From assembly GCA_964446345.1 (NCBI GenBank), contig CAYUOL010000001.1, positions 24,132 through 88,131 of the forward strand: a stretch of DNA of 64,000 nt, written 5' to 3'. The stretch comes from an uncultured Iamiaceae bacterium (GTDB lineage: Bacteria > Actinomycetota > Acidimicrobiia > Acidimicrobiales > Acidimicrobilacustridaceae). Below the pieces are notes generated by a model, which saw only the letters and a program-made list of their open reading frames with translations, had not been told where the DNA came from and did not search any database. The position numbers and the translations under genes are program-made. This document shows, piece after piece, positions 22,483 to 41,223 of the stretch. How positions within the stretch are numbered: the first letter of the stretch is position 1; the number at the start of each line of letters is the position of its first letter.

Positions 22483-23652
22483 CTACATTCGTTTGGCGAC
22501 CTCTTCTAGCATGACCTCGCTGGCGCCGCCGCCAATGGCCTGAACTCGGGCATCGCGCGACATCCGCTCCACCGCCATCTCACGCATGTACCCCATGCCT
22601 CCGTGAAACTGAACACAGTCGTAGAGAACCCGGTTCACCAACTCACCGGAGTAGGCCTTGACCATCGAGACTTCACGCACACAGTCGCGGCCCTCGCAGT
22701 CGAGACGAGCAGCGTGATAAACGAGTTGACGCCCCGCTTCGACCCGGGTCTGGCAAACCGCCAGGCGTTGGCGCACAGTCTGTTTGTCCCACAATGCGCC
22801 GCCGAATGCTTTGCGTTGCTTGACGTAAGCAACGGTCAGGTTCAGTGCGGTCTGCGCTTCGGCCACTGCTAGTGCACCCAGCACAATCCGCTCATTCTGG
22901 AAATTCTTCATCACCGAGTAGAAGCCGCGATTGATTTCGCCCAGCACGTTTTCGGCAGGCACGCGAACATTCTCGAAAATCAGCTCGGCGGTGTCCGAAC
23001 ACAGCCATCCCGTTTTCTTCAACGCTCGGCTTACCGAAAAGCCGGGCGCACCTTTCTCGACGGCGAACATCGTGATCCCGCGGGAGCCCTTCGCTCCCGG
23101 ATCGGTCTTGGCGGCGACAAAATACAAGTCGGCGTGCACGCCGTTGGTAATGAACATCTTGGTGCCGTTCAGCACCCAATCAGAACCGCTTTTCACAGCG
23201 CGCGTACGCATACCGGCGACGTCCGATCCCGCGCCCGGCTCAGTGACGGCCACTGCCGTGATCTTCTCACCGCTGGTGATGGCGGGCATCCAACGCGCCT
23301 TCTGCTCCGGCGTCCCGGCGTTTTCCAGATGCGGCGATGCCATATCGGTATGGACCAAAACCGTCGCCGAGAATCCGCCAAAGGTGGAGCGGCCCAGCTC
23401 CTCGGCCAGCATCACACTCGCCATCGTGTCGAGCCCGGCACCGGCATATTCGGGATCATAGCGCATTCCCAGGACGCCGAGCCCGCCCATTCTGCGTAGG
23501 ACGTCGCGAGGTACTAAGCCTTGCTCCTCCCACGCGTGTGCCACCGGAATAACTTCGGTTTCGATGAACCGCCGCAATTGAGCGCGGATCATCTCCAACT
23601 CTTCGTTGAAGGGGAACGCGGTCGCCTCGGTTAGGACTTGACGGGTATTCAT
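22483..23652 (-). CDS. Acyl-CoA dehydrogenase (isovaleryl/citronellyl-CoA dehydrogenase-like)
   Basis: ATG 23652 is in an ATGA overlap with the carboxylase alpha stop. Motifs AVAVTEPGAGSDVAG and FHGGMGY. Confidence 0.88.
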   Translation of the reverse strand: MNTRQVLTEATAFPFNEELEMIRAQLRRFIETEVIPVAHAWEEQGLVPRDVLRRMGGLGVLGMRYDPEYAGAGLDTMASVMLAEELGRSTFGGFSATVLVHTDMASPHLENAGTPEQKARWMPAITSGEKITAVAVTEPGAGSDVAGMRTRAVKSGSDWVLNGTKMFITNGVHADLYFVAAKTDPGAKGSRGITMFAVEKGAPGFSVSRALKKTGWLCSDTAELIFENVRVPAENVLGEINRGFYSVMKNFQNERIVLGALAVAEAQTALNLTVAYVKQRKAFGGALWDKQTVRQRLAVCQTRVEAGRQLVYHAARLDCEGRDCVREVSMVKAYSGELVNRVLYDCVQFHGGMGYMREMAVERMSRDARVQAIGGGASEVMLEEVAKRM

Positions 23653-25664
23653 GTGTCTTCCTTTCGCTCCATTCGGACGAGCGGGGCGCCACCAGCAACG
23701 GTGTCGCCGGTCACGCAATAGATCTCCTTCACGTTGCCGCTCAAGGGGGCGACCAGGCTTTGCAGTAACTTCATTGCCTCCAGCACCACCAATGTCTGAC
23801 CTCGTTCGACAAAGTCGCCCTGCCTGACGCTGAGCTCGACGATCGTGCCGGGCATCGGCGCATTCAGAGTATCCTCGTCAGCTGAACCCGCACCAGCGCC
23901 GTGGCCATGAAGATCCTCGAGCGTGAGGAAATGGACCTGCATCATGCCATCACGGCCCGAAAGATGGACACGCCAGCTCCCGTCGGTACGTTCCAAGTGC
24001 GCGATGCGGGCAAATGGCCGCCCGGCAACGCGCCCCATCAATCGTCCATCGCGGAGTGAGATGTCTTCAACCGAGACCGGTGTCATCTTTGCTCCGCGAA
24101 CCTCCAGCCGCAAATCCTGCCCGACCGCCAAAAGCTCTTCCAGCTCGTCCCCTGCTTGCCAATAGCGTGCCGCACCAGGCCGTCCCGCCCGGTCGGTCAC
24201 ACGCCAGGCACCCAGCGTATGCCACGGGTCGGCATTCGCGCTCTTGGAAAGATGCTGATGCAGCGCCAACGCAGCTAGCGCTCGACTTTCATTGTCTGCC
24301 TCTGGCGCCTTCCAGCCGCCGGGAAAAAGCTGTTCGAGCGCTGCGGTGTGGTGGCGCAGCGAGGCGAAATCTGGATGAGTGAGCAGCGCGCGCTGATAGG
24401 CGATATTCATGCCGACGCCCCCGACGGCGAATTTGTCGAGCGCAGCAACGGCCTGGCGGATTGCACCTTCACGATCGCCTGCCTTCGCAATCAGCTTGGC
24501 GAGCATCGAATCGTAGTGATGGCTCACAACGCTGCCCATCTCGACCCCTGAGTCGAGCCGAAGGTCTGGACCCTTGGGGGGTGCCCAGAGGGTGATCGTG
24601 CCAGTTTCGGGGCGAAAGCGTTCGGCGGGATTCTCAGCTGCAAGGCGAATCTCGATGGCATGACCCGCGCAGCCAATGTCCTTCTGGGTGAAGGCCAATT
24701 CCTCGCCGCGCGCGACTCGCAGTTGCCATTCCACGAGATCGATGCCGGTGATCGCCTCGGTTACGGGATGTTCAACCTGAAGGCGCGTATTCATTTCGAG
24801 GAAATAGAATTCCCGACGTTCAGAGTCGTAGAGATATTCCACCGTGCCAGCCGAGCTGTAGCCGATGGTGCGGGCGAGGCTGACGGCGGCCCCGAGCATT
24901 TTCTCGCGCAGCGGCGCCGGCAGGCCGGGAGCTGGCGCCTCTTCGATCAGCTTCTGGTGGTTGCGTTGGAGCGAGCAATCGCGGTCCCACAGGTGCACAA
25001 CATGACCATAGCTGTCGCCCAAGATCTGCACTTCGACATGGCGTGCGCGTGGAGCGTAGCGTTCAAGAAACACGGTTGCATCGCCAAAGCCGGCAAGCGC
25101 TTCGGCTTTGGCGGCGCGGATCGCCTCACTTGCCGTCTTGAGCTCCATAACAAGCCGCATCCCCCGCCCACCGCCGCCGGCGCTGGCTTTGACGAGGAAT
25201 GGCACGCCGAGGCTCTCGGCTTCCGCGAGCAGCCGCGCTTCGGACTGATCCGCCCCGCGATAGCCGGGCAGAACGGGCACCCCCGCCGCCTCAGCGGCCG
25301 CCTTGGCCTCGATCTTCGAACCCATCCGCGCGATCGCCTCGACAGAGGGGCCGATGAAGACGAGCCCCGCCTCCGCCACGCGGCGAGCGAATTGGGCGCT
25401 TTCCGACAAGAAGCCATAGCCAGGATGCACCGCGCCCGCGCCCGCAGCGCGCGCGGCCTCCAAGATCGCATCGATGTTCAGGTAGCTCCGCGAAGGTGCC
25501 GGCGGGCCGACGCAGATAGCGTGATTGGCCTCGGTTACGAAGGGGGCGTCGCGGTCAGACTCGGAATAAGTGGCGACACTTTCAAGCCCGAGTTTCGCGC
25601 AGGCGCGCTGAATGCGCCGTGCGATCTCGCCTCGATTGGCGATGAGGACGCGCGTGAAGCTCAT
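23649..25664 (-). CDS. Biotin-dependent acyl-CoA carboxylase alpha subunit (biotin carboxylase + BCCP), copy 1
   Basis: N-terminus RVLIANRGEIARRI, an ATP-grasp core, and the C-terminal biotinyl motif LEAMKL. Start 25664 is in an ATGA overlap with the hydratase stop (alternative ATG at 25676). Confidence 0.92.
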   Translation of the reverse strand: MSFTRVLIANRGEIARRIQRACAKLGLESVATYSESDRDAPFVTEANHAICVGPPAPSRSYLNIDAILEAARAAGAGAVHPGYGFLSESAQFARRVAEAGLVFIGPSVEAIARMGSKIEAKAAAEAAGVPVLPGYRGADQSEARLLAEAESLGVPFLVKASAGGGGRGMRLVMELKTASEAIRAAKAEALAGFGDATVFLERYAPRARHVEVQILGDSYGHVVHLWDRDCSLQRNHQKLIEEAPAPGLPAPLREKMLGAAVSLARTIGYSSAGTVEYLYDSERREFYFLEMNTRLQVEHPVTEAITGIDLVEWQLRVARGEELAFTQKDIGCAGHAIEIRLAAENPAERFRPETGTITLWAPPKGPDLRLDSGVEMGSVVSHHYDSMLAKLIAKAGDREGAIRQAVAALDKFAVGGVGMNIAYQRALLTHPDFASLRHHTAALEQLFPGGWKAPEADNESRALAALALHQHLSKSANADPWHTLGAWRVTDRAGRPGAARYWQAGDELEELLAVGQDLRLEVRGAKMTPVSVEDISLRDGRLMGRVAGRPFARIAHLERTDGSWRVHLSGRDGMMQVHFLTLEDLHGHGAGAGSADEDTLNAPMPGTIVELSVRQGDFVERGQTLVVLEAMKLLQSLVAPLSGNVKEIYCVTGDTVAGGAPLVRMERKEDT

Positions 25665-26458
25665 TTCACGCGCCATGAGGGCGTGCCCTTGCTCAAGAAG
25701 CAGTTGATGCCTTCAACTCCCTCTTCGGTCTCCCAGGCGTCGGCCAACCGGTCGGCGGTATAGATCATGTTGGCGTGGAGATCGTGCCGGGCGACATAGG
25801 CGATGAGCCGCTTGGTTTCGGCCACTGCCCCCGGAGCGGCCTGTAGATGGGCATTGACGACGCGCTCGACTGCCTTGTCTAGCGCCTCGGCTGCCACGAC
25901 CTCGGTCAGAAGCCCGAGCCGCTCGGCACGCGCACTATCGAATAACGCTCCCGACAGCATGGTCTCGCGTGCGGCAGCCGCTCCGATCTTCGCCACCACA
26001 TAGGGGGAGATATTGGAGGGCAGCAGGCCCATTCGTACCTCCGTAAGACCGAACTTCGAGCCTTCGATGCCGATCGTGTAGTCGCACACCGAGATCAGGC
26101 CAACGCCGCCACCGTAGGCCGGGCCGTTGACGCGCCCGATCAACGGCTTGCGCAGGGTGTCGAGGCTGCGTAGCAGATGAGCCAGCGATGCGCTCTGTGC
26201 CACCCGCTCAATGCGCGTCTTTTCCACGTTCGAGGCAAACCAGTTGAAGTCGCCTCCCGCGCAAAAACTCTTGCCTGCACCGGTCAGCACCACGATGCGC
26301 ACGGCTGGGTCGTCCGCCAGTATCTGAGCTGCCGCACCCAGGTCAGCCATCAGTTCGCCATTGATCGCATTGTGCTTCTCCGCACGACTGAGCGTCAGCG
26401 TCGCAACCCCGCGGGCATCCACGTCGACGATGACGGTGTTGTGTACGCCGAGCTTCAT
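25661..26458 (-). CDS. Enoyl-CoA hydratase (methylglutaconyl-/isohexenylglutaconyl-CoA hydratase-like)
   Basis: Crotonase motif GAGKSFCAGGDFNWF. It sits between the carboxylase beta and alpha genes, as LiuC/AtuE do. Confidence 0.85.
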   Translation of the reverse strand: MKLGVHNTVIVDVDARGVATLTLSRAEKHNAINGELMADLGAAAQILADDPAVRIVVLTGAGKSFCAGGDFNWFASNVEKTRIERVAQSASLAHLLRSLDTLRKPLIGRVNGPAYGGGVGLISVCDYTIGIEGSKFGLTEVRMGLLPSNISPYVVAKIGAAAARETMLSGALFDSARAERLGLLTEVVAAEALDKAVERVVNAHLQAAPGAVAETKRLIAYVARHDLHANMIYTADRLADAWETEEGVEGINCFLSKGTPSWRVK

Positions 26459-26470
26459 GGTTGCATTGTC

Positions 26471-28069
26471 TCACATTCTAAAGACGGGCGTATGGCGCCC
26501 GGCCTCGGGCACCGAGGTCACGATGGCCAGGCACAGCCCGAGGACGTCGCGCGTTTGACCCGGCTCAATCAGACCGTCGTCCCACAGCCGCGAGGTTGCA
26601 TAGTAAGGATCGGATTGTTCCGCATATTGCGCGCGCACTGCGAGCTCGATCTTCTCCAGCTCCGCCTGCATCTGCCTCTCGTCGCCCCCCTTTTGACGAC
26701 GCAACTCCATCATCACGCTTGCTGCGATGTCCGCTGACATGGTGGCAACTTCTGCCGTCGGCCATGCAAACAGGAAGCGCGGCGCAAATCCGCGGCCGCA
26801 CATTCCATAGTTACCCGCCCCATAGGAGCCGCCAACGATCATCGAAAGTTTGGGCACTTTGGCCACCGACATGGCATAAACCAGCTTGGCGCTATTCTTG
26901 GCGATGCCGCCGCGCTCGGCCTCCGTGCCGACCATGAAGCCTGTGACATTGTGCAGGAAGATAAGGGGCAGATTTCTCTGATCGCACATTGAGACGAACT
27001 GTGCACCCTTGAGCGAAGAGTCCGACAGAAGCGCGCCGTTGTTACCCAAGATGCCGACCTGATAGCCGTGAATACGTGCAGTGCCACAGACCAGCGTTGC
27101 CCCCCAATCGGGTTTGAATTCGTGGAACTCACCGGCATCGATGATGCGCAACAGGAGCTCGCGCACGTCATAGGGCTCCTTACGGTCGCCGCTCACGACA
27201 CCCAGAAGCTCCTCGGGATCATAAAGCGGACGGCGCGGTGGAGCTGTGGGCGCGGTTGGGCGTGTCAGCCCCAGACTAGCGACGATATCGCGCATGAGTG
27301 CGAGCGCGTGATGCTCGTTTTCGGCTAGATGATCGCTCACGCCCGAGACGCGGGTATGCATCTCGGCCCCCCCGAGGGTCTCGCCATCGACTTCCTCGCC
27401 GATCGCCACCTTGACAATCGAAGGGCCACCCAGATGAATGCGGGCATTGCCGCGCACCATGATGACCTCGTCAGAGAGCGCGGGAATATAAGCTCCACCA
27501 GCGGTGCAGCCGCCAAACACTGCCGATATCTGCGGCAGCCCCGAAGCCGACATGTTGCATTGCCGATAGAAGGCGTTGCCGAAATCGCGCCCCCCAGGAA
27601 ACACTCGGTCCTGCTCGGGCAAATAGGCACCGCCGCAGTCAACGAGATAGAGACAAGGCAGCCGATTTTGGTCAGCGATCTCCTGTGCGCGAATGTGTTT
27701 CTGCACCGTCTCGTGATAGAATGATCCGCCTTTGACCGTAGCGTCGTTGGCGATCAGCATGCAGTGCAGGCCGTGGATGATTCCAATGCCAGTGACGATG
27801 CCCGCACCCGGTACCTCGCCGCCATACTGCCCCCATGCCGCCAAGCTCGAAAGCTCCAGAAATGCCGAGCCGGGATCGACCAGGACGTCGATGCGCTCGC
27901 GCACCAGCAACTTGCCGCGAGCGCGGTGCCGCTCAACAATTTCAACCCGTCCACCACCTGTGGCCTCGGCCATTCGGTCGCGCAGAAGCGCTATGCGCGC
28001 CTTTTGTGTAGCGCGGTTGCGAATAAATCGTTCAGAGGCGATGTTGAGTGATGAAGAAAGGCTCCTCAT
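26471..28069 (-). CDS. Acyl-CoA carboxylase carboxyltransferase (beta) subunit, copy 1
   Basis: 532 aa. Motifs ANDATVKGGSFY, CTAGGAYIPALSDE and a second CT domain; MCCase/GCCase beta-like. Confidence 0.92.
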   Translation of the reverse strand: MRSLSSSLNIASERFIRNRATQKARIALLRDRMAEATGGGRVEIVERHRARGKLLVRERIDVLVDPGSAFLELSSLAAWGQYGGEVPGAGIVTGIGIIHGLHCMLIANDATVKGGSFYHETVQKHIRAQEIADQNRLPCLYLVDCGGAYLPEQDRVFPGGRDFGNAFYRQCNMSASGLPQISAVFGGCTAGGAYIPALSDEVIMVRGNARIHLGGPSIVKVAIGEEVDGETLGGAEMHTRVSGVSDHLAENEHHALALMRDIVASLGLTRPTAPTAPPRRPLYDPEELLGVVSGDRKEPYDVRELLLRIIDAGEFHEFKPDWGATLVCGTARIHGYQVGILGNNGALLSDSSLKGAQFVSMCDQRNLPLIFLHNVTGFMVGTEAERGGIAKNSAKLVYAMSVAKVPKLSMIVGGSYGAGNYGMCGRGFAPRFLFAWPTAEVATMSADIAASVMMELRRQKGGDERQMQAELEKIELAVRAQYAEQSDPYYATSRLWDDGLIEPGQTRDVLGLCLAIVTSVPEAGRHTPVFRM

Positions 28070-28132
28070 TCGTTCTTCTCAGACTGTTCACCGGTGCTAC
28101 TGTCGCGGATGCGTCCAGAGCAATTGCCGTTT

Positions 28133-28148
28133 TCTAACATCCGTTTGA
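28133..28148. promoter_or_regulatory. Near-consensus copy of the TCTAAC-N4-GTTAGA operator
   Basis: TCTAACATCCGTTTGA has 5/6 in the right arm. It lies in the divergent region between carboxyltransferase (start 28069) and SDR (start 28260). Confidence 0.4.
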
Positions 28149-28259
28149 TTTTTGTCAACGTCTTCGGTAAGCTGCATCTGCGGAGAGTGCACGTGTGCAA
28201 GAAATGGCAATCTGACCATCATCGGCGAGTCGTTCTGGGAATAATATTGGAAAGCGGAG

Positions 28260-29111
28260 ATGAAGAGAGAAATCGGAAGTCGCTTCGCCCCTAGTTTAAT
28301 GCTCGGTCAGGTTGCACTTGTCACCGGAAGCGGCTCTGGCATGGGCCGCGCTACCGCGCTTGAAATGGCATTCTGCGGTGCAAAGCTCGTGCTTTTCGCC
28401 CGCCGCGAGGATCCGCTGCAGCAAACCGCCGAGATGATTCGTGCCCAGGGCGGCGAAGCATTGGTAATCTCAGGCGACATCCGAGATGAAGCAAGTGTTA
28501 CTGCTGCGATGCGCCGGATTAAAGAGAATTACGGGCAGCTGGATGTCCTGGTCAACAACGCTGGTGGGCAATATGTTGCCGCCGCACGCGATATCACCAA
28601 CAAGGGTTTTGAGGCCGTAGTGCGTAACAATCTAGTTGGATCATGGCAGATGACGCGCGCTGTCGCCGATCATTTCATGTTCGAACATGGCGGCTCCATC
28701 GTATTCGTGACGGCGGTCAGCCGCACCGCGTTGACCGGCTTTGCTCATACCGCCGCTGCACGCGCCGGCGTGACCGGACTGATGAAGACCCTCGCCGCCG
28801 AGTGGGCACAATACGGCATTCGGCTAAATTGCGTAGCACCCGGCACTGTAAAGACGGAGGCGCTCGGTCGCTATCCGATCCCACCACAGAAATGGAATGA
28901 GTTTAACCGCTCCGTTCTCAACCGCATGGGCGCGCCCGAGGATGTCGCTGGCGCGATTGTCTTTCTTGCGTCGAAGTTAGGTAACTTCATCACCGGCGAA
29001 GATTGGTACGTAGACGGCGGCGAAACCCTTCACCTAGCACACGATGCCCGTGACATGATCAACACCGAAATGTTTGCCAACCGTCAACGCGGAGATCGCC
29101 GACATGGCTGA
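28260..29111 (+). CDS. SDR oxidoreductase, DECR/PECR-like (paralog of 21257-22120)
   Basis: Has GSGSGMGRA and NNAGGQ. FAHTAAARAGVTGLMKTLAAEW shows the same non-classical active-site pattern. Confidence 0.82.
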   Translation: MKREIGSRFAPSLMLGQVALVTGSGSGMGRATALEMAFCGAKLVLFARREDPLQQTAEMIRAQGGEALVISGDIRDEASVTAAMRRIKENYGQLDVLVNNAGGQYVAAARDITNKGFEAVVRNNLVGSWQMTRAVADHFMFEHGGSIVFVTAVSRTALTGFAHTAAARAGVTGLMKTLAAEWAQYGIRLNCVAPGTVKTEALGRYPIPPQKWNEFNRSVLNRMGAPEDVAGAIVFLASKLGNFITGEDWYVDGGETLHLAHDARDMINTEMFANRQRGDRRHG

Positions 29112-29310
29112 TTTTGTAACCGTTCCGCATCCGGAGTATTGCTTGCGCACCCTCGCATTTTGACGGCGCTCGAGCGGCCTACAGAGGAAAGCACTGAAAT
29201 GGGTTGCTGTTGTCAAGACAACGCCGCTTCCCCTCGAAGAGTCAAAATCTCCATGAACTGAAAGAAACCGCGCTTATTTTTTTCAATAGTCATCAGCTAA
29301 GGTCGCACCG

Positions 29311-29796
29311 ATGCTCCTCAAAGACCAGCAACGCTTTGAGCAAATCAGCACTCTCTGGATCACGAGAGCCAAGGGTTTCATTACCCACATGAACTTGCGG
29401 ATTGAGGGGCACGGGCCTGACGGCGTAACCGTCCGGATGCCGTTCAATCCCGCTTTTTGTATCGACGAGCCACCAACTCTTCTCCATGGCGGAGTGCTGA
29501 CTGCGCTGCTGGACAGTGTATTCGGGCTGGTCAATTTCATCGCGATCGACGACATCAGCACGATGGCCACGCTTGATCTGCGCGTGGATTATCTTCGACC
29601 GGCACAATCCCGCGCCGACGTGTTGGTCCGCGCCAAATGCTATCACCAGACCCGCCATATTGCCTTCAATTCCGGCGTTATCTGGTTCGATGATGACAAG
29701 GGCGACGAAGTCGCACGTGGCTGTGCTACCTTCGCTCTCACACGAGGCGAGAGAAATCTTTTCGATATCCAGACAACACCGCGGAAACCAGAATGA
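29311..29796 (+). CDS. PaaI-family hotdog thioesterase
   Basis: 161 aa; LHGGVLTALLDSVFG motif. Confidence 0.75.
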   Translation: MLLKDQQRFEQISTLWITRAKGFITHMNLRIEGHGPDGVTVRMPFNPAFCIDEPPTLLHGGVLTALLDSVFGLVNFIAIDDISTMATLDLRVDYLRPAQSRADVLVRAKCYHQTRHIAFNSGVIWFDDDKGDEVARGCATFALTRGERNLFDIQTTPRKPE

Positions 29797-30194
29797 CGCC
29801 CGAGGAAACGAACACGCTACTGATGAAGAGGCCCTTCTTCAGGTTCCTCGGCTTTACCATCGTGAACATTGAGGAGGGACACGTCGCTGCCCAAATGCCC
29901 TTTTCCGAAAGCTATATAGGTAATCCTGTCATGAACTACTATCATGGCGGCATCATTGCCAGTGTTATGGAGGCGGTGGCATCCGTCGCAGTTTGGCAAG
30001 ATCTTAGGAATCGAAGTCCGAAGCCAATCAACCTTACGGTTGACTACCTGCGGCCCGCCATCGCAGAGCCGTTGAATGTGCGGGCGACGGTCTTACGAAA
30101 AGGGCGTCGGATGGCAAGCGTCGAAGCCGTGAGTTGGCAGGCGGAGCCGGAGATTTCTGTCGCCAAAGGGCTATTTCATTTTCTGCTCGCTTGA
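29793..30194 (+). CDS. PaaI-family hotdog thioesterase (second, tandem)
   Basis: 133 aa; YHGGIIASVMEAVAS motif. ATGA overlap with the previous gene. Confidence 0.75.
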   Translation: MTPEETNTLLMKRPFFRFLGFTIVNIEEGHVAAQMPFSESYIGNPVMNYYHGGIIASVMEAVASVAVWQDLRNRSPKPINLTVDYLRPAIAEPLNVRATVLRKGRRMASVEAVSWQAEPEISVAKGLFHFLLA

Positions 30195-33036: not shown

Positions 33037-35048
33037 GAACTCTCACTTTCTAAGGGAGTTATCTCGACGATTGGCTGCCCTCGGTCCACCATTGCGCCTC
33101 GCGAGATGGATATATTTTTCGCCACTCCCGAAACCATCGCCTTTATCGAGATCTCAAGCTTCATGGACTCCAGGATCGCCACAACCTCGCCGGCCGCTAC
33201 TGAGGCCCCCTCGTCGATCAATACCTTCACAATTGTGCCGGTTAGAGGAGACACGAGAATGCGGTCCGCAGTGCTATCTACTTCAGCGAAAGCCAGCGAT
33301 GTCGACGCTTGGTACAGCAGACGGCCGCCAGGCGTGTCGATTTCGATCGAATTGCCTCGGACGCGCGCTTCGATGGTAATCGTTTCGTCCTCATGCGTGA
33401 TCTGCAAGCGGCCGCATCGAAGCTCAGTTGCGTTCAGCGCCAAGGGCATGCTGTCGTCGCTGTAGACAACAAAGAGGTTGTCATTTCCCACCGGGCTGAC
33501 GCGCAGCTCTTTGCCGGATGTTCCCGGATGCGCGAGGATCACACGCTGGCCTGCCTCGTCCAGAGCGCCGCCAAGGCCGAGCCGCCAACCGGTAAACCTA
33601 TCACGGTTGCGCCAAGGGTTGGCATCGCCGTCGGCGCGGCCACGGGTGACGAACAGAACGGCGGCCACCGCCTGCCACAGCCGCCCATCCGAGCGCTGCG
33701 GAGCGGCGGTTAGTGCATTGATGCAACTGTCGATCCAGCGGGTATGCACCTGCATTCGCGCAAAATCGGCGTCTCGGGTGAGTGCAGCAAGAAAGGTACG
33801 GTTCGTCTCGACCCCGTCCACAACCACGTGATCCAACGCTTGAGCCAGGCGCGCCAGCGCCGCATCCCGATCGGAATGATGCACGATGAGCTTTGCAATC
33901 ATCGGATCATAGAAAGGGCTAACACTGTCGCCTGCCTCAACGCCACTATCAATCCTAAGACCGTCGGGCAGCGAAATCGCCGTGATCCGCCCTGTTGAAG
34001 GAGAGAACTGCATCCGCGGATCCTCGGCGTAGAGCCGAGCCTCCACAGCATGCCCCGTGCAGGTGATCTGATCTTGGGTCAGGCCCAAGCCTGCGCCCTC
34101 TGCGATGCGCAGCTGCAGCGCCACGAGGTCCAATCCGGTGACCGCTTCGGTTACCGGATGCTCGACTTGGATTCGGGGATTGACCTCCAGAAAAAAGTAC
34201 TCTTCGCCTAGCACTAGAAACTCGACAGTGCCTAGCCCACGATAGTTCAGCGCCTCCGCAAGCCGGACCGCATCCTGGGCGATGTGATCGAGAAGTGGCC
34301 GCGGGAGACCCCAGGCGGGAGCTTCCTCGATCACCTTCTGATGGCGGCGCTGTAGCGTGCAGTCGCGTTCGAAGAGGTGCACCACGTGGCCTGTGCCATC
34401 ACCGGCGATTTGTATTTCGACATGGCGCGCCGCAGGCAGGAAGCGCTCGAGCAAAAGTCCCTCGGAGCCGAAAGCGGATTTCGCCTCGCGCTGCGCGCTC
34501 TCGATGTCGGCCTTCAGCGTAGCCTCATTGTCGATCAGCCTCTGACCGCGCCCACCGCCGCCCCCAACGGCCTTCAAAAGAGCCGGAAGCCCAACTTCTC
34601 GTACCGCCCGTGCGATTTGATCGGGGTCGGACATGACACCATGGCCTCCGGGAATGACCGGCACGCCGGCGGCTGTCGCGGCCTTTTTAGCACTGGCCTT
34701 GTCGCCGAACCGCTGTAGTGTCTCGGCGGTAGGGCCGACGAAGATCATACCGGCGGCCTCCACCGCACGAGCGAAGTCCGGATTTTCCGCGAGGAAGCCA
34801 TAGCCGGGATGGATTGCGTCCGCGCCGGCTTGCCGAGCGGCCGCTATCACCGCGTCGATCCGCAGATAACTTTCGACAGCCGGTCCGCCTCCGATCCTGA
34901 GCGACCGACCGACTTCGCGCACATGCAACGCCTCGGCGTCAGCGTCAGAATGGACGCCGATCGGAACGATTCCGAGCGAGCGAGCCGTGCGTGCGATCCG
35001 GCATGCGATTTCGCCGCGGTTGGCAATGAGAAGAGACTTAATACGCAT
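33033..35048 (-). CDS. Biotin-dependent acyl-CoA carboxylase alpha subunit (BC + BCCP), copy 2
   Basis: MRIKSLLIANRGEIACRI, an ATP-grasp core, and the C-terminal biotinyl motif LESMKL. Confidence 0.92.
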   Translation of the reverse strand: MRIKSLLIANRGEIACRIARTARSLGIVPIGVHSDADAEALHVREVGRSLRIGGGPAVESYLRIDAVIAAARQAGADAIHPGYGFLAENPDFARAVEAAGMIFVGPTAETLQRFGDKASAKKAATAAGVPVIPGGHGVMSDPDQIARAVREVGLPALLKAVGGGGGRGQRLIDNEATLKADIESAQREAKSAFGSEGLLLERFLPAARHVEIQIAGDGTGHVVHLFERDCTLQRRHQKVIEEAPAWGLPRPLLDHIAQDAVRLAEALNYRGLGTVEFLVLGEEYFFLEVNPRIQVEHPVTEAVTGLDLVALQLRIAEGAGLGLTQDQITCTGHAVEARLYAEDPRMQFSPSTGRITAISLPDGLRIDSGVEAGDSVSPFYDPMIAKLIVHHSDRDAALARLAQALDHVVVDGVETNRTFLAALTRDADFARMQVHTRWIDSCINALTAAPQRSDGRLWQAVAAVLFVTRGRADGDANPWRNRDRFTGWRLGLGGALDEAGQRVILAHPGTSGKELRVSPVGNDNLFVVYSDDSMPLALNATELRCGRLQITHEDETITIEARVRGNSIEIDTPGGRLLYQASTSLAFAEVDSTADRILVSPLTGTIVKVLIDEGASVAAGEVVAILESMKLEISIKAMVSGVAKNISISRGAMVDRGQPIVEITPLESESS

Positions 35049-35060
35049 GGTGTCGCGCAC

Positions 35061-36668
35061 CTAAAACCGAAAAACGCCGAAGTGACTGTCGACCTTCGGA
35101 CGTCGGGAAGCTACATCCAGAAGCAGCGCCAGCACATCGCGCGTTTCAGCGGGTTCGATAACGCCGTCGATCCAAAGATTCGAAGCGAAATTGTACGCGT
35201 CTTGAAATGTCTCGTACTCCCGGCGAATTGGAGCTTTAAAGACCTCTTCCTCTTCGGCCGTCCAAATTTTACCTTCGCGGTCATTGATCTGGGCACGCAC
35301 TTGGGCCAGCACGCTCGCTGCCTGCTCTGGCCCCATGATAGCCGCGCGTCCGTTCGGCCAGGCAAACATGGCGTCCGGCTGAAACGGTCGGCCCAACATA
35401 GCGAGGTAGCCCGCGCCGTAGGAGCCGCCGGTAATCACCGTAAACTTCGGCACGCGGGCCGACGACATAGCAGTGATCATCTTGGCGCCAGCCTTAGCGA
35501 TGCCCGCCTGTTCCACTTCGCGACCGACCATGAACCCATTAACGTCGACGAGAAAGACCAGCGGAATGTCGCGTTGCACGCATAGATTTATAAAATGAGC
35601 CGCTTTCAGAGCTGCCTCGACGAAAAGCACTCCGTTGTTGGCCAGGATGCCGACCTCATGGCCGTGAATGCGAGCCCAACCAGTTATTAATGTGTCGCCA
35701 TACAGCGGCTTGAACTCGTGCAATTCGCTGCCATCGACCAGCCGCGCGACGATTTCGCGATTATCCGTCGGTACCTTGGCGTCACGACTGACGATGCCGT
35801 AAATTTCATCAACCGGATAAACGGGAGGCTTCGGAACGATGGGGATTTTCCGAGGACTGGTCTTTTCGCCCAGATGTGCCACGATTTGCCGAGTAATCGC
35901 CAGCGCATGGGCGTCATTCTCGGCCAAGTGGTCGGTCACGCCGGAGATCGCGCAATGCATCTTCCCGCCGCCCAAAGTCTCGGCGTCGACCTTCTCGCCA
36001 GTCGCGGCAAACGTTAATTCGGGCCCGCCAAGATACATAAATCCTTGCCCGCGCACGATCACGACCTCATCGCATAATGCCGGGATATAGGCACCACCCG
36101 CGGTACATGGTCCCATCACAACAGCAATCTGCGGTATGCCATCGCCCGACATGCCCACTTGGTTGTGGAAGATGGAGCCGAACTGGCCTTCGTCGGGAAA
36201 AATATTTGCTTGTTCGGGCAGAAAAGCCCCACCACTGTCGACCAGTGTGATCACTGGCAGCCGGTTGGTCCAAGCGACGCGCTGGGCGCGAACGTGTTTC
36301 TTGCTCGTCATCCCGAAATAAGTGCCGCCCTTTACGGTGGCGTCGTTTGCAATAATCATGCAATGCCGGCCCTCGATCATGCCGATGCCGGTAATGATGC
36401 CAGCGCCAGGGGGCACGCCTTCATATTTATTCAAGCCCGCAAGTTCACCCAGTTCCAAAAAGGGGGTGCCTGAATCAATCAGCCGTTCGACGCGATCACG
36501 CGGCAGGACCTTGCCCTTCTCCTCGTGTCGCTCCCGTGCCTTCAGCGGGCCGCCGGCACGTTGCTCCAGCCGCAGTTCGTGCAGCCTTTTGATTCTCGCG
36601 CGATAGTGCGTCTCATTGGCCCGGAAATTCTCCGAACCCTTATCGAGAAGTGATTTAAGGATTGTCAT
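35061..36668 (-). CDS. Acyl-CoA carboxylase carboxyltransferase (beta) subunit, copy 2
   Basis: The true start ATG 36668 (MTILKSLLDKGSENF) is in an ATGA overlap with the PaaK-like stop. Motifs ANDATVKGGTYF and CTAGGAYIPALCDE. The track N-terminal extension to 37037 is Arg-rich nonsense lying inside the upstream gene. Confidence 0.92.
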   Translation of the reverse strand: MTILKSLLDKGSENFRANETHYRARIKRLHELRLEQRAGGPLKARERHEEKGKVLPRDRVERLIDSGTPFLELGELAGLNKYEGVPPGAGIITGIGMIEGRHCMIIANDATVKGGTYFGMTSKKHVRAQRVAWTNRLPVITLVDSGGAFLPEQANIFPDEGQFGSIFHNQVGMSGDGIPQIAVVMGPCTAGGAYIPALCDEVVIVRGQGFMYLGGPELTFAATGEKVDAETLGGGKMHCAISGVTDHLAENDAHALAITRQIVAHLGEKTSPRKIPIVPKPPVYPVDEIYGIVSRDAKVPTDNREIVARLVDGSELHEFKPLYGDTLITGWARIHGHEVGILANNGVLFVEAALKAAHFINLCVQRDIPLVFLVDVNGFMVGREVEQAGIAKAGAKMITAMSSARVPKFTVITGGSYGAGYLAMLGRPFQPDAMFAWPNGRAAIMGPEQAASVLAQVRAQINDREGKIWTAEEEEVFKAPIRREYETFQDAYNFASNLWIDGVIEPAETRDVLALLLDVASRRPKVDSHFGVFRF

Positions 36669-38056
36669 GACAGATCGGGGTATTTGCGAAGAGTGAGCGC
36701 AACCTTCGCCGCGCCGGGTTTCTCGAATGTGTCGGGCTTCACAATGCGGACGTCGGCCTTGAATACCAGCGCATCGCGAAGACGCGTCTCGATCTTGTTT
36801 CTTAGTTCGTCGTCCCTGTTGGGCGGACGGTGGGGTCCGCGTTCGACAATGATTTTGAGTGCCGACTGCGTCGTATGCCCCTCGAAATCGGCAACAACGC
36901 GGACAACCCCGTTGGTCTCGGGCATCATTTCGTTGATGATGCTGTGGATGGCTGAGGGGAAGACGTTGGCACCGCGGACAATCAGCATATCGTCGGCGCG
37001 ACCGATACAACGGATCTTTGGCCCTGTTCGCCCGCACGAGCAGCTGGTGGCCAGGACGTCAATGTAGTCGCCGGAGCGGAAGCGCAGCAGCGGGCTCGCC
37101 TGACGGCCTATCGCCGTATAGACCATCTCACCACGGGCCCCGTCCTGGAACGGGATAATCTTGCCAGTTTCGGGGTCGAGCAGCTCGGTAATAATGTAGT
37201 CCATACTGACCATGTGCATGCCCGACTGTTCGTCGCACTCGGCCCAATAGGTCACACCGAGGTCCGTGCCACCAAGTAACTCGGTGCATTTTGCGCCCCA
37301 CAGCTCCTCAATGCGGCGGCGGACGGTGGGGATGCCACCGCCCGGCTCGCCACCCACGATGACCCGCTCGACGCCAAGCTGCGATGCGGGAATGCCAAGG
37401 ATCTCAGGCGCTTTCTCACCCAAGTGCAGAACAAAGTTTGGCGCACCGACCACGCAGCGCGGGCGGATGTCGGCACAAGCTCGGATGAGACGGTCGGCAC
37501 CGCCATCGGCACCAATCGGGATGTCGATGGCGCCCAAGTATTGCAAACCTTGCATGACCGGGATGCCGCCAACAAAGCCTTTGGCCAGCGAGAAGGCATG
37601 CAGCACCATGTCGCCGGGCCGCACGCCGGTTGCGAAAAAACAGCGTGCCGACATTTCATGCCACATTGCGGCGTCGGATTCGGTCAGAGCCACGTAAGAT
37701 GGGCTGCCTGTAGTGCCGGAGGACGCCTGCATCTGAATTATATCTTCGGGCTTGGCCGCGAGGTGGAGGCCGAAAGGCTTGCGAGCGGCAAGACTGTCGC
37801 GGATCTCCGCTTTGAACGTGTAGGGCAGCTTCTGCAGATCATCGATAGTGCGCACGTCGTCGAACCTCGCACCGGCCGCGCCCAGCTTCTTCTGATAGAA
37901 TTCCGAGTTGGCCTGCAAGTAGGCCATCTGCGCGATCAGCTTCTCTTCTTGAATGCGTCGGACTTCGCTGAGCGGCGTTGTTTCGATCGCATGCCAGCAG
38001 CGCGCGCTTGACTTGTCGTGAGCGTCCGCTCGTCGGAAACGCATCCCGAGATTCAT
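36665..38056 (-). CDS. Phenylacetate-CoA ligase (PaaK)-family adenylate-forming enzyme
   Basis: 463 aa with an AAGGAGG SD. P-loop ASSGTTGSPSY. N-terminal RRIQEEKL...LQKLPYTFKAEIRD is typical of PaaK/F390-synthetase-like proteins. Confidence 0.85.
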   Translation of the reverse strand: MNLGMRFRRADAHDKSSARCWHAIETTPLSEVRRIQEEKLIAQMAYLQANSEFYQKKLGAAGARFDDVRTIDDLQKLPYTFKAEIRDSLAARKPFGLHLAAKPEDIIQMQASSGTTGSPSYVALTESDAAMWHEMSARCFFATGVRPGDMVLHAFSLAKGFVGGIPVMQGLQYLGAIDIPIGADGGADRLIRACADIRPRCVVGAPNFVLHLGEKAPEILGIPASQLGVERVIVGGEPGGGIPTVRRRIEELWGAKCTELLGGTDLGVTYWAECDEQSGMHMVSMDYIITELLDPETGKIIPFQDGARGEMVYTAIGRQASPLLRFRSGDYIDVLATSCSCGRTGPKIRCIGRADDMLIVRGANVFPSAIHSIINEMMPETNGVVRVVADFEGHTTQSALKIIVERGPHRPPNRDDELRNKIETRLRDALVFKADVRIVKPDTFEKPGAAKVALTLRKYPDLS

Positions 38057-38085
38057 TGCTTAACCTCCTTGCCGATCCGCAGCTC

Positions 38086-39246
38086 TCAGTAAGAGCGTGG
38101 CAGGCCCATGATCTTTTCGCCGATGAAACTCAGACAAAGCTCGCGGTTCACTGGGGCCGTGCGCAGCAAGCGCATCAGTGGATATAGCTCGTAAATGCCG
38201 GTATCTTCGGTAAACCCCGATCCGCCATGAGCCTGGAGCGCCGCATCCACCGCCTCGATGCCAGCCTCCGCCGCAGCATATTTGGCCATATTGGACGAGG
38301 CGCCAGCGGGTAGGCTGTTGTCGAATTCCCAAGCGGCGCGGCGGGTCATGAGGCTCGCCATTTCGACTGCGGTGTGGGCCTTGGCCATCGGATGTTGGAC
38401 ACCCTGATGCGCACCGATCGGCTGGCCGAAAACGTTGCGCTGCGACGCATAGGCGACGCCTTTATTTAGCGCGAATCGGCCAATTCCGCAGCATAGAGCA
38501 GCCAGGATGATGCGCTCGGGGTTAAGCGAGTCGAAAAGAATCGAAAAGCCTTCGTCCACTTGGCCCACAACATCTTCGGGACCAAGATCAACCTCGTCGA
38601 AAAATAGCGTCCATTGTTCTTCGGGTAGTGGAATCGAAATCTTCACCCGTTGTTTGTCGACGCCTTTCTTTTTCAGATCGACCGCAAAAAGCGTGAAGCC
38701 ATCGGTCTTGCGCTTGACCTCTTCGTGCGGCTTGGTACGGGCTACTACCAAGCAGTAGTCCGCGACATCAGCGCCGGTAATAAAGGTCTTTTCCCCCGAT
38801 AATGAAAAGCGGTTACCTCTTTGCCTTGCCAATGTTCGAGCCTTGATCGTGTTCGAACCAGCTCCGGGCTCTGTGATCGCAAAACAGAACTGGATTTCGC
38901 CACGACAAGCCCGCGGCAGGAGCTCCTTTTTCTGGAACTCGCTTCCATGGTTCGCAATATGCGCCAAGGACATGGTCGGCCCGACGACCATCATCAGAAG
39001 CGGAATACCGTGATTGGCCGTCCCCTCCATGAACAAAGCCATCTCAGTCATGCCGAGGCCGGCCCCGCCAAACTCTTGAGGCACCATAAGCCCCAGAAAT
39101 CCATCATCGGCGATCTTAGAGAACATCTCTCGCGGAAAAACATGCCGACGCGCATGATCGAGCCAATAGGCGTTGTCGAAACGCTGTGCCAACTGGGCGC
39201 CGTATTCGTAGATCTGGCGCTGCTCATCGTTCAAGTTGAAATCCAT
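38086..39246 (-). CDS. Acyl-CoA dehydrogenase
   Basis: Start MDFNLNDEQRQIYEYG at ATG 39246. Motifs CFAITEPGAGSN and AHGGSGF. Confidence 0.88.
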   Translation of the reverse strand: MDFNLNDEQRQIYEYGAQLAQRFDNAYWLDHARRHVFPREMFSKIADDGFLGLMVPQEFGGAGLGMTEMALFMEGTANHGIPLLMMVVGPTMSLAHIANHGSEFQKKELLPRACRGEIQFCFAITEPGAGSNTIKARTLARQRGNRFSLSGEKTFITGADVADYCLVVARTKPHEEVKRKTDGFTLFAVDLKKKGVDKQRVKISIPLPEEQWTLFFDEVDLGPEDVVGQVDEGFSILFDSLNPERIILAALCCGIGRFALNKGVAYASQRNVFGQPIGAHQGVQHPMAKAHTAVEMASLMTRRAAWEFDNSLPAGASSNMAKYAAAEAGIEAVDAALQAHGGSGFTEDTGIYELYPLMRLLRTAPVNRELCLSFIGEKIMGLPRSY

Positions 39247-39265
39247 ATTGAACTCCGACGCGGTG

Positions 39266-40045
39266 TTATTGTTCAAATCTCGGCTCGCGGCGATTGGCGA
39301 AGGCATCCAGCCCTTCGGCCACCTCCGCTCCCGGCAGGTGACGCAATGCAGCGTCGCGCTCAAGACGCATGCTTTGGTCGAGCGTCAGTTCCAGACCCTC
39401 GCGACCCAGCCGTTTCATCTCAGCCATGCCCTGCCGCGAGCGCGTGCCGATCTTCTGGCAGTAAGCCAAGGCCGCGCTGTGGAGTTGATCATCGGCCACG
39501 ACATAGTTTACGAGTCCAGCCTCCTTGGCCTCGTCCGCCTTCAACCAACGCGCAGAGAACATCAGATCGAGCGCTCGGCGCAGTCCCATAAGACGGACCA
39601 ACCGCTGACTGCCGCCCCAACCCGGAATGAGACCGAACTGCGCATGCTGATCACCAAATTGCGCGGTCTCCGCCGCGAAGCAGACGTCGCACGACAGCAT
39701 CAATTCGATGCCCCCCGCCAGGCACAGCCCCTGGACCGCCACGACCACCGGTAGGGGACTCTGCTCGAGCCGGCGCAACACGCCTATGCCGAAACCAATG
39801 AAGCGATCCAGCGCCGCCGGATCGTCCATCTTGCCTTTCACTTCGACGAGGTCAGCTCCGGTGCAAAAATGTTTGCCCTGGGCGCAGATCAGAACAGCGC
39901 GAACCGAGCGGTCGGCCTCAAATTTCGCACGACCGGCATCGATAAGCTGATGTACCTCGAGCGAAAGACAGTTGAGCTTCTCCGGCCGGCTCAACTCGAT
40001 GATCCCGGTGCTGCCTTCGGTTCGGATCTTGACCGGAACGCTCAT
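39266..40045 (-). CDS. Enoyl-CoA hydratase/isomerase (crotonase family)
   Basis: The true start ATG 40045 (MSVPVKIRTEGSTGIIELSRPEKLN) is in an ATGA overlap with the ACAD stop. Motif AQGKHFCTGADLVEV. Confidence 0.88.
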   Translation of the reverse strand: MSVPVKIRTEGSTGIIELSRPEKLNCLSLEVHQLIDAGRAKFEADRSVRAVLICAQGKHFCTGADLVEVKGKMDDPAALDRFIGFGIGVLRRLEQSPLPVVVAVQGLCLAGGIELMLSCDVCFAAETAQFGDQHAQFGLIPGWGGSQRLVRLMGLRRALDLMFSARWLKADEAKEAGLVNYVVADDQLHSAALAYCQKIGTRSRQGMAEMKRLGREGLELTLDQSMRLERDAALRHLPGAEVAEGLDAFANRREPRFEQ

Positions 40046-41223
40046 TTTCCCGCCCCCTTCGCTCTCTTGTCGTATTGGAGCGCCACGCGCCCTACCTTCT
40101 CGCGCGCTATGACGAGCTTCTGGATTTGCGCCGTGCCGTCGCCGATTTGAAGCCCGAGCACGTCGTTGTGACGCTGATGGTGCGGCAGGTCGGTTGTGTA
40201 GCCATAGTGCCCGTGCAAAATCAGGCACTGGTGGATGATCTCGCAGGCAGTCTTTGGCACATACCATTTGCACATGGCCGCCTCGGCCGTATGCGGCATG
40301 CCGCGATCGCGCAGGTCGAGGGTATAGTAACAGAGCTGGCGCATCATCGTCAGTTGCGTCTCGGCCTCGGCGAGCGGAAAGGTGACGCCCTGATATTGAG
40401 CCAACGGCGCGCCGAACGCCTCGCGTTCCTGGACATAGGCCCAGGTCTCGTCGACAGAGGCCTGCGCCGGACCGAGGCACTCCAGCCCGATCAGCGCGCG
40501 GCTATAGTCGAAGCCCGCCATGATGGTCCCGAAGGCTCGGTCCTGTTCGCCCATCAAGCATTCAGCCGGCACATGGACATCATCGAAGAAAACCGAGCCA
40601 CGGCCGACCGGCTTGGTGCCGATGTCGTCAAAATGGGTCCGCTTGATCCCCTTTTCCGTCAGGTTAACAAAGAAAGCGCTGACGCCACGCGACCCGCCTT
40701 TTGGATCGCCGGTGCGGGCGAAGACAACTGCAGCGTCTGCCTGCGCAGCAAAGCTCATGGAGGTCTTTTCGCCATTCAGCCGCCAGCCATTACCTGACTT
40801 CTCGGCGCGCAGCTGAAGATTTGCCGCGTCCGAACCGCCGCGTGGTTCGGTAAGGCCAAGTCCGATCACCGCGTCCCCTGCAATCACTCGCGGCACCCAA
40901 TCGCGGGCGATGTCCTCCGAGGCGTGTTTTGCGACCATGCCGCCCATGAGCGAGCCCAGGAGTTGCACGTAGCTGACGTTGAAATCGGCATAGGCGATCT
41001 GTTCGGTGATCAACCCGGCCGTGACGGAGCTTTCACCCATTCCGCCAAACTTCTCAGGAAGATCCGGCGCAATCAGACCGAGCGAGCCCATTTCACGGAT
41101 CAGTCCCCGATCGAGGACATGGCCTTTGGCGCGCTTTTGATAGCCATCGGCCAATCTTTCGCGCGCAAAACGCCGTGCGACCTCCCGAAAGGCGAACTGA
41201 TCTTCGGTCGGCTGAAAGGGCAT
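40042..41223 (-). CDS. Acyl-CoA dehydrogenase
   Basis: 393 aa with a GGGAGGA SD. Motifs GLGLTEPRGGSD and IGDGTAQIQKLVIARE. Confidence 0.88.
   Translation of the reverse strand: MPFQPTEDQFAFREVARRFARERLADGYQKRAKGHVLDRGLIREMGSLGLIAPDLPEKFGGMGESSVTAGLITEQIAYADFNVSYVQLLGSLMGGMVAKHASEDIARDWVPRVIAGDAVIGLGLTEPRGGSDAANLQLRAEKSGNGWRLNGEKTSMSFAAQADAAVVFARTGDPKGGSRGVSAFFVNLTEKGIKRTHFDDIGTKPVGRGSVFFDDVHVPAECLMGEQDRAFGTIMAGFDYSRALIGLECLGPAQASVDETWAYVQEREAFGAPLAQYQGVTFPLAEAETQLTMMRQLCYYTLDLRDRGMPHTAEAAMCKWYVPKTACEIIHQCLILHGHYGYTTDLPHHQRHNDVLGLQIGDGTAQIQKLVIAREKVGRVALQYDKRAKGAGK

Follow-up and report, generated by a model that had tools for sequence, protein, structure and literature searches.

What do two complete biotin-dependent acyl-CoA carboxylase modules, encoded 4 kb apart in a 64-kb stretch of contig CAYUOL010000001.1, do for the bacterium that carries them? 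Throughout, the window denotes this whole stretch of 64,000 nucleotides. Module 1 (22483-28069) encodes, in the direction of transcription, a carboxyltransferase (CT) beta subunit (CTb1), a crotonase-family hydratase (hyd1), an alpha subunit combining biotin carboxylase (BC) and biotin carboxyl carrier protein (BCCP) (alpha1) and an acyl-CoA dehydrogenase (ACAD1). Module 2 (32080-41223) encodes ACAD3, a second crotonase (crot2), ACAD2, a PaaK-like CoA ligase, CTb2, alpha2 and a lyase of the 3-hydroxy-3-methylglutaryl-CoA (HMG-CoA) lyase family. An earlier note on this DNA had described both modules as complete, and our listing of open reading frames (ORFs) and NCBIfam scans bear this out: all their genes are intact minus-strand ORFs where that note had placed them, with only small corrections of gene ends. 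The same scans recovered the accessory genes it had named, namely short-chain dehydrogenases/reductases (SDRs) resembling dienoyl-CoA reductase (DECR), PaaI thioesterases, the extra ACAD and the PaaK-like ligase. We consider it reasonably probable that the modules are non-canonical 3-methylcrotonyl-CoA carboxylase (MCC)-type enzymes of a single catabolic regulon, horizontally mobile and under TetR control, that serves imported beta-substituted acids, the substrates being most likely methyl-branched or isoprenoid-derived and possibly alicyclic.

Lineage, active sites and lyase of the modules

Among PDB sequences, both beta subunits are closest to MCC-beta (575-618 bits), followed by the beta subunits of geranyl-CoA carboxylase (GCC; 420-460 bits) and, at a distance, of propionyl-CoA carboxylase (PCC; at most 280 bits). 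CTb1 scored 608 bits against MCC-beta 3u9r, 460 bits against GCC-beta 5ikl and 277 bits against the best PCC, and the corresponding values for CTb2 were 601-618, 431 and 272 bits. The alignments to MCC-beta and GCC-beta are full-length, beginning at residues 3-4 and including the N-terminal extension. This ranking places both carboxyltransferases, by sequence, in the gamma-carboxylating MCC/GCC lineage, as the earlier note had expected from the joint presence of carboxylase, crotonase and HMG-CoA-lyase-family genes, a combination that the window does contain. The alpha subunits matched BC models with 547-571 bits and BCCP models at their C-terminal ends (NCBIfam). CTb1 and CTb2 are 50% identical, alpha1 and alpha2 41%; at these values, the two pairs are old paralogues and not the outcome of a recent duplication.

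A maximum-likelihood tree of CT-beta sequences was built with few references: human and Pseudomonas aeruginosa MCC-beta, the Rhizobium etli MccB adjacent to isovaleryl-CoA dehydrogenase (IVD), PaGCC-beta and the atuC-like gene of Achromobacter plasmid pA82, which lies in the syntenic order CT, ACAD, hydratase, alpha, AtuA. CTb1 and CTb2 each form a clade of their own (support 100/100; stems of 0.91 and 0.84 substitutions per site), and both fall outside the canonical MCC clade, which is sister to the two together. GCC, represented by PaGCC and the pA82 atuC-like protein, is a separate clade; the next clade contains carboxylases whose BC and BCCP are encoded by separate genes. The join of CTb1 with CTb2 is supported at only 89/81 and may reflect long-branch attraction. 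Identity values tell the same tale, as CTb1 and CTb2 are 50-54% identical to the human, Pseudomonas and Rhizobium MCC-betas and 43-44% to PaGCC-beta, against 64-66% among those canonical MCC-betas. Neither the tree nor the identity matrix reveals tight clustering with ordinary MCC or PCC. Together with the lack of AtuA and of an IVD orthologue in the window, where all ACADs are at most 36% identical to R. etli IVD, this position outside the MCC and GCC clades agrees with the earlier view that the locus is neither a canonical liu nor a canonical atu cluster.

We also considered CTb2 as an ordinary alphaproteobacterial MCC, 83-87% identical across many genera. This candidate was rejected, as the whole 16-kb cluster travels together and the tree splits CTb2 from the IVD-linked MccB.

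One residue position distinguishes MCC from GCC. In MCC-beta, Phe191 and a preceding three-residue insertion block geranyl-CoA, GCC has Gly162 at this place, and the changes F191G and G162F exchange the substrate preference (Jurado et al., PMC4673880). We checked this rule on sequences, where MCC reads FPDREHFGRIFFNQ and PaGCC, obtained through the pA82 atuC-like gene, reads F-VE---GARGFANQ. Both CTb1 (FPGGRDFGNAF) and CTb2 (FPDEGQFGSIF) have the MCC length, with the three-residue insertion and the Phe, which is present in 84/84 sequences of the CTb1 group and in 83/83 of the CTb2 group (in the CTb2 group, the canonical R. etli MccB is counted too). By the gate rule, neither carboxylase of the window would be geranyl-CoA-like. 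The pairing of a long-chain (geranyl-CoA-like) with a short-chain (methylcrotonyl-CoA-like) enzyme, which the earlier note had raised, is therefore not supported: both betas carry the Phe and the insertion, and neither groups with GCC. Because both enzymes retain the gate, their substrates are expected to be compact, resembling 3-methylcrotonyl-CoA in size around the reactive carbon, and the Phe suggests a small group next to that carbon.

Other loops differ from those of canonical MCC. CTb2 reads GAGYLAMLGR where human MCC, PaMCC, CTb1 and the third carboxylase of relatives described below (CTb3) read GAGNYGMCGR and PaGCC reads GAGNYAMCGR; from the PccB literature, we take this G-A-G loop to lie at the biotin and acyl reaction centre. 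CTb2 further has GGTYFG[IM]T and LADVNGFMVG in place of the canonical GGTYYPLT and LQNITGFMVG, and CTb1, which retains GAGNYGMCGR, has GGSFYHET for GGTYYPLT. These clade-specific changes, strongest in CTb2, indicate at the level of sequence that CTb1 and CTb2 are not simply 3-methylcrotonyl-CoA carboxylases.

The lyase at the end of module 2 is the sole lyase of both modules, since module 1 has no lyase gene of its own. It reaches only 174 bits against human HMGCL, retains the HxH and GGCP motifs in the alignment, and has GPREG for GPRDG; the Asp replaced here by Glu is presumably a metal ligand. The motif EGPREGFQ is invariant in 76/76 orthologue copies, a count that takes in duplicate loci and the window itself. 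An insertion follows the GGCP motif. Judged by this conservation, the GPREG lyase is a distinct subfamily and no decayed gene.

Shared putative operator and distribution of the island

The window contains six copies of a 16-bp palindrome, TCTAAC-N4-GTTAGA, when up to two mismatches are tolerated; 0.54 sites would be expected, and none of 100 shuffles reached six (0/100). The site at 28133 lies upstream of module 1 and that at 22163 upstream of an operon for an ATP-binding cassette (ABC) importer and ligases; the sites at 8031 and 54392 lie, respectively, in the divergent region between P450 and thiolase-like genes and upstream of an operon headed by a transglutaminase-like gene. In six of the seven checked relatives that hold the region between the FadH-like gene and ACAD3 (6/7), the palindrome of this region is found at the same place. 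As the palindrome precedes both modules and also a gene for a double TetR protein, we assign both modules, on sequence grounds, to one regulon in which it links about 50 kb of acyl-CoA genes. The double TetR protein is most likely the repressor of this regulon, with predicted binding to the palindrome. TetR-type control has a precedent in the Pseudomonas atu operon, which stands under a TetR-type repressor and responds to branched acyclic acids, and atuR/atuA has been used as a biosensor for naphthenic acids (PMC11495318). A similar use as a biosensor component is conceivable for the operator/TetR pair described here.

At the far end of the regulon (4802-10781) lie a nitronate-monooxygenase-like gene and a P450, as well as genes for a FAS1-like double-hotdog hydratase and for a thiolase-like protein partnered by a ChsH2-type OB-fold/Zn-ribbon protein. 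The set is otherwise typical of branched side-chain cleavage, and the marine island described next has all of it except the P450.

Over the queried CT-beta genes, the window is 100% identical to Bradyrhizobium japonicum in8p8 and to a Bradyrhizobium metagenome-assembled genome (MAG), and the neighbouring genes compared are 89-100% identical to those records. The G+C content of the island in the window is 55-64%, mostly below what we take to be the Bradyrhizobium norm. Beyond these records, module 2 is syntenic in more than 75 genomes, at 65-92% amino-acid identity, including roseobacters, Paracoccus, Hyphomicrobium, Nisaea, Mesorhizobium, Ferrovibrio and Marinobacter. The conserved block comprises a ligase and the FadH-like gene and, divergently, ACAD3, crotonase, ACAD2, PaaK-like ligase, CTb2, alpha2 and lyase. 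Module 1 recurs as a four-gene unit in about 78 loci, mostly in genomes with module 2 and often on the same contig, 20-35 kb away. With each module found in conserved synteny in more than 75 further genomes, chance does not account for the arrangement. The modules, described earlier as side by side, are so in the window, but not in the marine islands, where 20-35 kb separate them.

The island resides on large plasmids, several of them typed as conjugative; 38 plasmid records carry CTb2 and 76 carry CTb1, at 80-90% identity. On pRIdsm_01 of Roseovarius indicus, it covers about 130 kb (~155-287 kb) and holds counterparts of three other operons of the window: importer/ligase, thiolase-like/OB-fold/hydratase and transglutaminase-like/MaoC/ACAD-pair. 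The nitronate-monooxygenase-like gene is also common to the window and the pRIdsm_01 island. The marine island additionally has electron transfer flavoprotein (ETF) genes, acid importers of the TRAP and ABC types and numerous CoA transferases. In its wider extent, it contains only acid importers and CoA-level enzymes, without ring or alkane oxygenases. Compared with it, the window copy is, as far as gene order and sequence tell, a compacted version of a widespread, mobile and uncharacterised island, in which the modules have come to lie 4 kb apart.

In most marine copies, a third carboxylase is encoded at a distance of about 5 kb from module 1, in the order enoyl-CoA hydratase, AtuA, BC, BCCP, CT (164614-170815 on pRIdsm_01). 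Its BC and BCCP are separate genes, and its CT, CTb3, has the MCC-length loop and, at the gate, Gly as in GCC (57 sequences) or Ala (2). It is 94-99% conserved among marine hosts, far above the conservation of CTb1 and CTb2 to the window. The window has no CTb3, no BioY and no AtuA (no match by tblastn with R. indicus AtuA). The absence of AtuA, reported in the earlier note, thus holds for the window and does not extend to the marine relatives, in which AtuA is linked to the third carboxylase. A scan of genome contigs with the R. indicus CTb3 returned matches down to 82%, among them another Bradyrhizobium MAG at 87%, and neither of the records that are 100% identical to the window; from this, the third carboxylase is probably absent from the window's strain. 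Directly downstream of module 1 on pRIdsm_01 lies a gene for the biotin transporter BioY (154596-155162), which fits a high biotin demand of three carboxylases.

Split BC/BCCP/CT carboxylases are also encoded on plasmids of Sphingopyxis macrogoltabida and R. leguminosarum, with Ala at the gate and beside ligases, SDRs or P450s. We had suspected these of being GCC, and the tree instead groups them with CTb3. Large-pocket carboxylases on the MCC side are therefore more widespread than the GCC clade alone.

For the exact sequence of the window (33033-38056 and 22001-42000), all sampled words (100%) were found in a large number of unrelated public runs, at flat, genome-like depth; these comprise biofilm, lake, seawater, sludge, wastewater and rhizosphere metagenomes as well as runs labelled as RNA of several other organisms. 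Occurrence of this kind is typical of a Bradyrhizobium strain that is very widespread or of the contaminant type. A full-text literature search found no study of the island or of the CTb1 and CTb2 clades and, in the library searched, nothing on 'beta-decarboxymethylation' of isoprenoids in marine bacteria.

Gene content and possible substrates

The genes and other features of the two modules are listed in the table. In module 1, hyd1 passes NF005675, the NCBIfam model of an enoyl-CoA hydratase family, with 352.6 bits (cutoff 350); its second match, the gamma-carboxygeranoyl-CoA hydratase model, gave 212 bits, under the cutoff of 426, and AtuE in the PDB (4zu2) gave 121 bits. ACAD1 scored 316 bits against the Geobacillus ACAD 2pg0, 281 against long-chain acyl-CoA dehydrogenase and 252 against IVD, and is 39% identical to the syntenic AtuD-like ACAD of Achromobacter and 36% to R. 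etli IVD. Its start was corrected to 23652, where it overlaps the alpha1 stop by ATGA. Such overlaps, taken as translational coupling, occur at three junctions, alpha1/ACAD1, PaaK-like/CTb2 and ACAD3/crot2, and relatives keep the PaaK-like ligase in 74 loci. A remnant of an IS481-family transposase (43174-44418) lies between the FadH-like and ACS-like genes, at a place where the marine gene order differs, and probably marks a rearrangement seam.

Table. Features of the two carboxylase modules and of the regulon around them (window coordinates)
Feature	Position	Strand	Remarks
Operator sites	8031, 22163, 28133, 41269, 47422, 54392		Palindrome scan of the window
DECR-like SDR, first gene of the ABC-importer/ligase operon	21257-22189	-	Perfect operator 22163-22178 upstream of likely true start
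ACAD1, module 1 acyl-CoA dehydrogenase	22483-23652	-	Best PDB match 2pg0
alpha1, BC and BCCP, module 1	23649-25676	-	NCBIfam BC and BCCP matches; biotinyl-Lys motif EAMKL
hyd1, crotonase-family hydratase, module 1	25661-26458	-	In the liuC/atuE position, between beta and alpha
CTb1, carboxyltransferase beta, module 1	26471-28069	-	MCC-type; Phe at the Phe191 gate (FPGGRDFGNAF); own tree clade
Operator-like palindrome TCTAACATCCGTTTGA	28133-28148		5' of module 1 and of the divergent SDR-thioesterase operon
DECR-like SDR	28260-29111	+	NCBIfam; R. indicus pRIdsm_01 counterpart 80% identical
Two PaaI-type thioesterases, translationally coupled	29311-29796, 29793-30194	+	pRIdsm_01 counterparts 64% and 53% identical
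FadD-like AMP-forming acyl-CoA ligase, last gene downstream of module 2	30337-31893	-	NF004837, 354 bits; adjoins the FadH-like gene in relatives
HMG-CoA-lyase-family lyase, module 2	32080-33036	-	GPREG for GPRDG; NF004283, 253 bits (cutoff 246)
alpha2, BC and BCCP, module 2	33033-35060	-	Biotinyl-Lys motif ESMKL
CTb2, carboxyltransferase beta, module 2	35061-36668	-	Start corrected to 36668, ATGA overlap with PaaK-like stop; Phe191 retained
PaaK-like adenylating CoA ligase	36665-38056	-	PaaK matches below cutoff (257 vs 700 and 223 vs 646 bits)
ACAD2	38086-39363 (full ORF)	-	True start probably ~39250 by homology; R. indicus counterpart 92% identical
crot2, crotonase, module 2	39266-40045	-	Start corrected to 40045, ATGA overlap with ACAD3 stop
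ACAD3, AliB-like (cyclohexanecarboxyl-CoA dehydrogenase family)	40042-41223	-	TIGR03207, 538 bits (cutoff 575)
Operator palindrome CCTAACAAACGTTAGA	41269-41284		Between module 2 and the divergent FadH-like gene
FadH/OYE-type Fe-S flavoprotein, 2,4-dienoyl-CoA-reductase-like	41316-43349	+	R. indicus annotation: NADPH-dependent 2,4-dienoyl-CoA reductase
ACS/acetoacetate-CoA-ligase-like enzyme	44584-46521	-	Member of the shared island core
SDR	46600-47394	-	Member of the shared island core
Perfect operator, then double-TetR gene	47422-47437, then 47458-48870	+	Two TetR_N domains in the protein

To our knowledge, carboxylation, hydration and cleavage make up the only well-described route by which a beta-methyl block is removed at the CoA level, and what is known of it rests on MCC and GCC, mainly from Pseudomonas and mitochondria. 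Our model for the modules follows this logic. The ABC importers would take up the acid, and the AMP-forming ligases would convert it to its CoA thioester. ACAD1 in module 1, or ACAD2/ACAD3 in module 2, would then yield a 3-substituted 2-enoyl-CoA, onto whose gamma carbon the carboxylase would add CO2 with ATP and biotin. Hydration of the carboxylated product by hyd1 or crot2 would give a 3-hydroxy-3-substituted glutaryl-CoA, and the single GPREG lyase of module 2 would cleave it, serving both modules. HMGL-type cleavage releases a free acid, for example acetoacetate in the Liu pathway. This would explain why a ligase lies inside the carboxylase operon and an ACS/acetoacetate-ligase-like gene belongs to the core: the PaaK-like and ACS-like ligases probably re-activate the acid released. 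The dienoyl-CoA-reductase-like enzymes, the thiolase/OB-fold pairs and the further ACADs of the regulon would complete beta-oxidation.

The substrate of the modules is probably undescribed, and several features hint at its class. The presence of two kinds of dienoyl-CoA-reductase-like enzymes suggests unsaturated substrates. Isoprenoid-derived acids fit the AtuA gene in relatives and the many alga-associated hosts, and alicyclic acids fit ACAD3 and the oil-associated hosts.

Some points weigh against the model. The order of its steps and the sharing of one lyase are drawn by analogy only; the change of Asp to Glu in the lyase could mean a different lyase reaction; and the Phe191 gate of both enzymes fits plain 3-methylcrotonyl-CoA equally well. 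The nearest family of ACAD3, cyclohexanecarboxyl-CoA dehydrogenase, speaks for rings and not for isoprenoid chains. The public runs labelled as RNA that contain the sequence show flat, genome-like depth on contigs up to 52 kb and are therefore DNA.

A bolder proposal, which we regard as tentative and rather unlikely, is that CTb1/alpha1 and CTb2/alpha2 define two new substrate classes and, with the GPREG lyase and in dependence on carboxylation, remove beta-branches from, or even open the rings of, compact alicyclic or isoprenoid-derived acyl-CoAs. Examples, offered with the same reserve, would be naphthenic acids or methyl-cyclohexene-carboxyl-CoA from apocarotenoids. If this were true, plasmid-bearing marine roseobacters and the Bradyrhizobium of the window would gain access to carboxyl-rich alicyclic or branched organic acids.

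Alternatively, the pathway could be devoted to alicyclic acids of the cyclohexanecarboxylate or naphthenic type, which we judge unlikely. Here, the AliB-like ACAD would make a ring 1-ene-1-carboxyl-CoA, CO2 would be added at the gamma carbon of the ring or of a ring methyl group, and hydration and the GPREG lyase would open the ring or remove the branch. The score of ACAD3 against TIGR03207 comes near the cutoff, a PaaK-like ligase, PaaI thioesterases and a FadH/OYE reductase lie alongside, the lyase and CTb2 are both atypical, and many hosts, by their strain names, come from samples enriched on oil or polycyclic aromatic hydrocarbons. However, no BadH, BadI or BadK equivalogue was found among the crotonase and SDR matches in the window, and carboxylation-dependent ring cleavage is without known precedent. 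Moreover, the sister carboxylase of relatives is linked to AtuA, an indication of acyclic isoprenoids, and the family placement of an ACAD is a weak guide to its substrate.

It is quite improbable that one or both modules are copies of the leucine/isovalerate (Liu) system, that is, MCCs feeding HMG-CoA lyase, either duplicated or acting as the terminal stage of the island. Both betas have Phe191, the MCC-length loop and MCC-beta as best PDB match; module 1 keeps the liuB-liuC-liuD order with a hydratase that passes NF005675, and module 2 ends in an HMGL-family lyase that passes NF004283. Nevertheless, the betas stand outside the canonical MCC clade, with less identity to its members than these share, CTb2 deviates in loops that are invariant in canonical MCC, and the lyase has GPREG. 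There is no IVD orthologue in the window, and the liu cluster of R. etli has IVD adjacent. The operator, predicted to be TetR-type and not LiuR-type, is common to about 50 kb of other acyl-CoA genes, and in relatives the modules are accessory and plasmid-borne. A biosynthetic or anaplerotic role, supplying extender units or glutaconyl-type intermediates as acyl-CoA carboxylases of other lineages are generally known to do in actinomycetes, drew no specific support from this analysis and is highly improbable, given that the genes sit among importers, ligases, ACADs, hydratases, thiolase-like genes and a lyase, that the 64-kb window has no polyketide synthase, non-ribosomal peptide synthetase or fatty-acid-synthesis genes, and that the characterised members of the MCC/GCC lineage are all catabolic.

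The locus adds two conserved carboxylase clades to MCC and GCC, and its relatives add a third; these have a lyase subfamily of their own and a shared putative repressor site. Conjugative plasmids carry the clades among dozens of genera of marine alphaproteobacteria and also into Bradyrhizobium. Should the substrates prove to be branched or alicyclic acids, for example products of isoprenoid breakdown, naphthenic acids or alicyclic matter rich in carboxyl groups, the island would offer a testable genetic handle on the turnover of persistent compounds in sea water, biofilms and polluted water, and would widen the known substrate range of biotin carboxylases.

Comparison with known systems

The Liu system of P. 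aeruginosa (liuRABCDE, encoding IVD, MCC-beta, methylglutaconyl-CoA hydratase, MCC-alpha and HMG-CoA lyase) has the same beta-hydratase-alpha order as module 1, and in module 2 an HMGL-family lyase directly follows the alpha subunit. Gate and loop length are those of MCC in both betas, and the expected chemistry, dehydrogenation, gamma-carboxylation, hydration and cleavage, would be the same. In contrast to Liu, the window has betas outside the canonical MCC clade, no IVD orthologue, a GPREG lyase and, in module 2, a PaaK-like ligase and two extra ACADs; it is accessory and mobile with a predicted TetR-type operator, whereas Liu is regulated by the MerR-type LiuR. On R. etli plasmid p42c (59262-65171), the genes after the canonical IVD-MccB-MccA set encode a MaoC dehydratase and a CitE-like CoA ester lyase in place of crotonase and HMG-CoA lyase, which suggests that the MaoC/CitE-like pair is an alternative hydratase/lyase for the last Liu steps.

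The bad/ali system of Rhodopseudomonas palustris (AliA, AliB, BadK, BadH, BadI) resembles the window in its AliB-like ACAD, CoA ligases, crotonase and nearby SDRs. Unlike the window, it has no carboxylase or lyase, and the window in turn lacks a recognisable BadI-type ring hydrolase and, as said above, the BadH and BadK equivalogues.

With the Atu system of Pseudomonas (atuRABCDEFGH, with AtuC/AtuF as GCC), the window shares a carboxylase, ACAD and hydratase in one operon, accompanied by SDRs and an acyl-CoA ligase; a TetR-family repressor acting on inverted-repeat operators, as in Atu, is predicted for the window. In the marine relatives, moreover, an AtuA gene heads the operon of the sister carboxylase. 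Module 1 has no lyase, and neither does the atu cluster, which relies on LiuE for this step. The differences lie in the enzymes: neither beta of the window belongs to the GCC clade or has Gly162, hyd1 stays under the gamma-carboxygeranoyl-CoA hydratase cutoff, ACAD1 is only distantly related to the syntenic AtuD-like protein, and the window is without AtuA.

The closest counterpart is the R. indicus pRIdsm_01 island, known from PGAP annotation only. It is larger and more spread out, with the third carboxylase (split BC/BCCP, gate Gly) behind AtuA and with additional BioY, ETF, TRAP importers and many CoA transferases. It carries orthologues of both modules, at 66-92% identity per gene, together with the same accessory genes, the same operator, the double TetR and counterparts of the other operons of the window.

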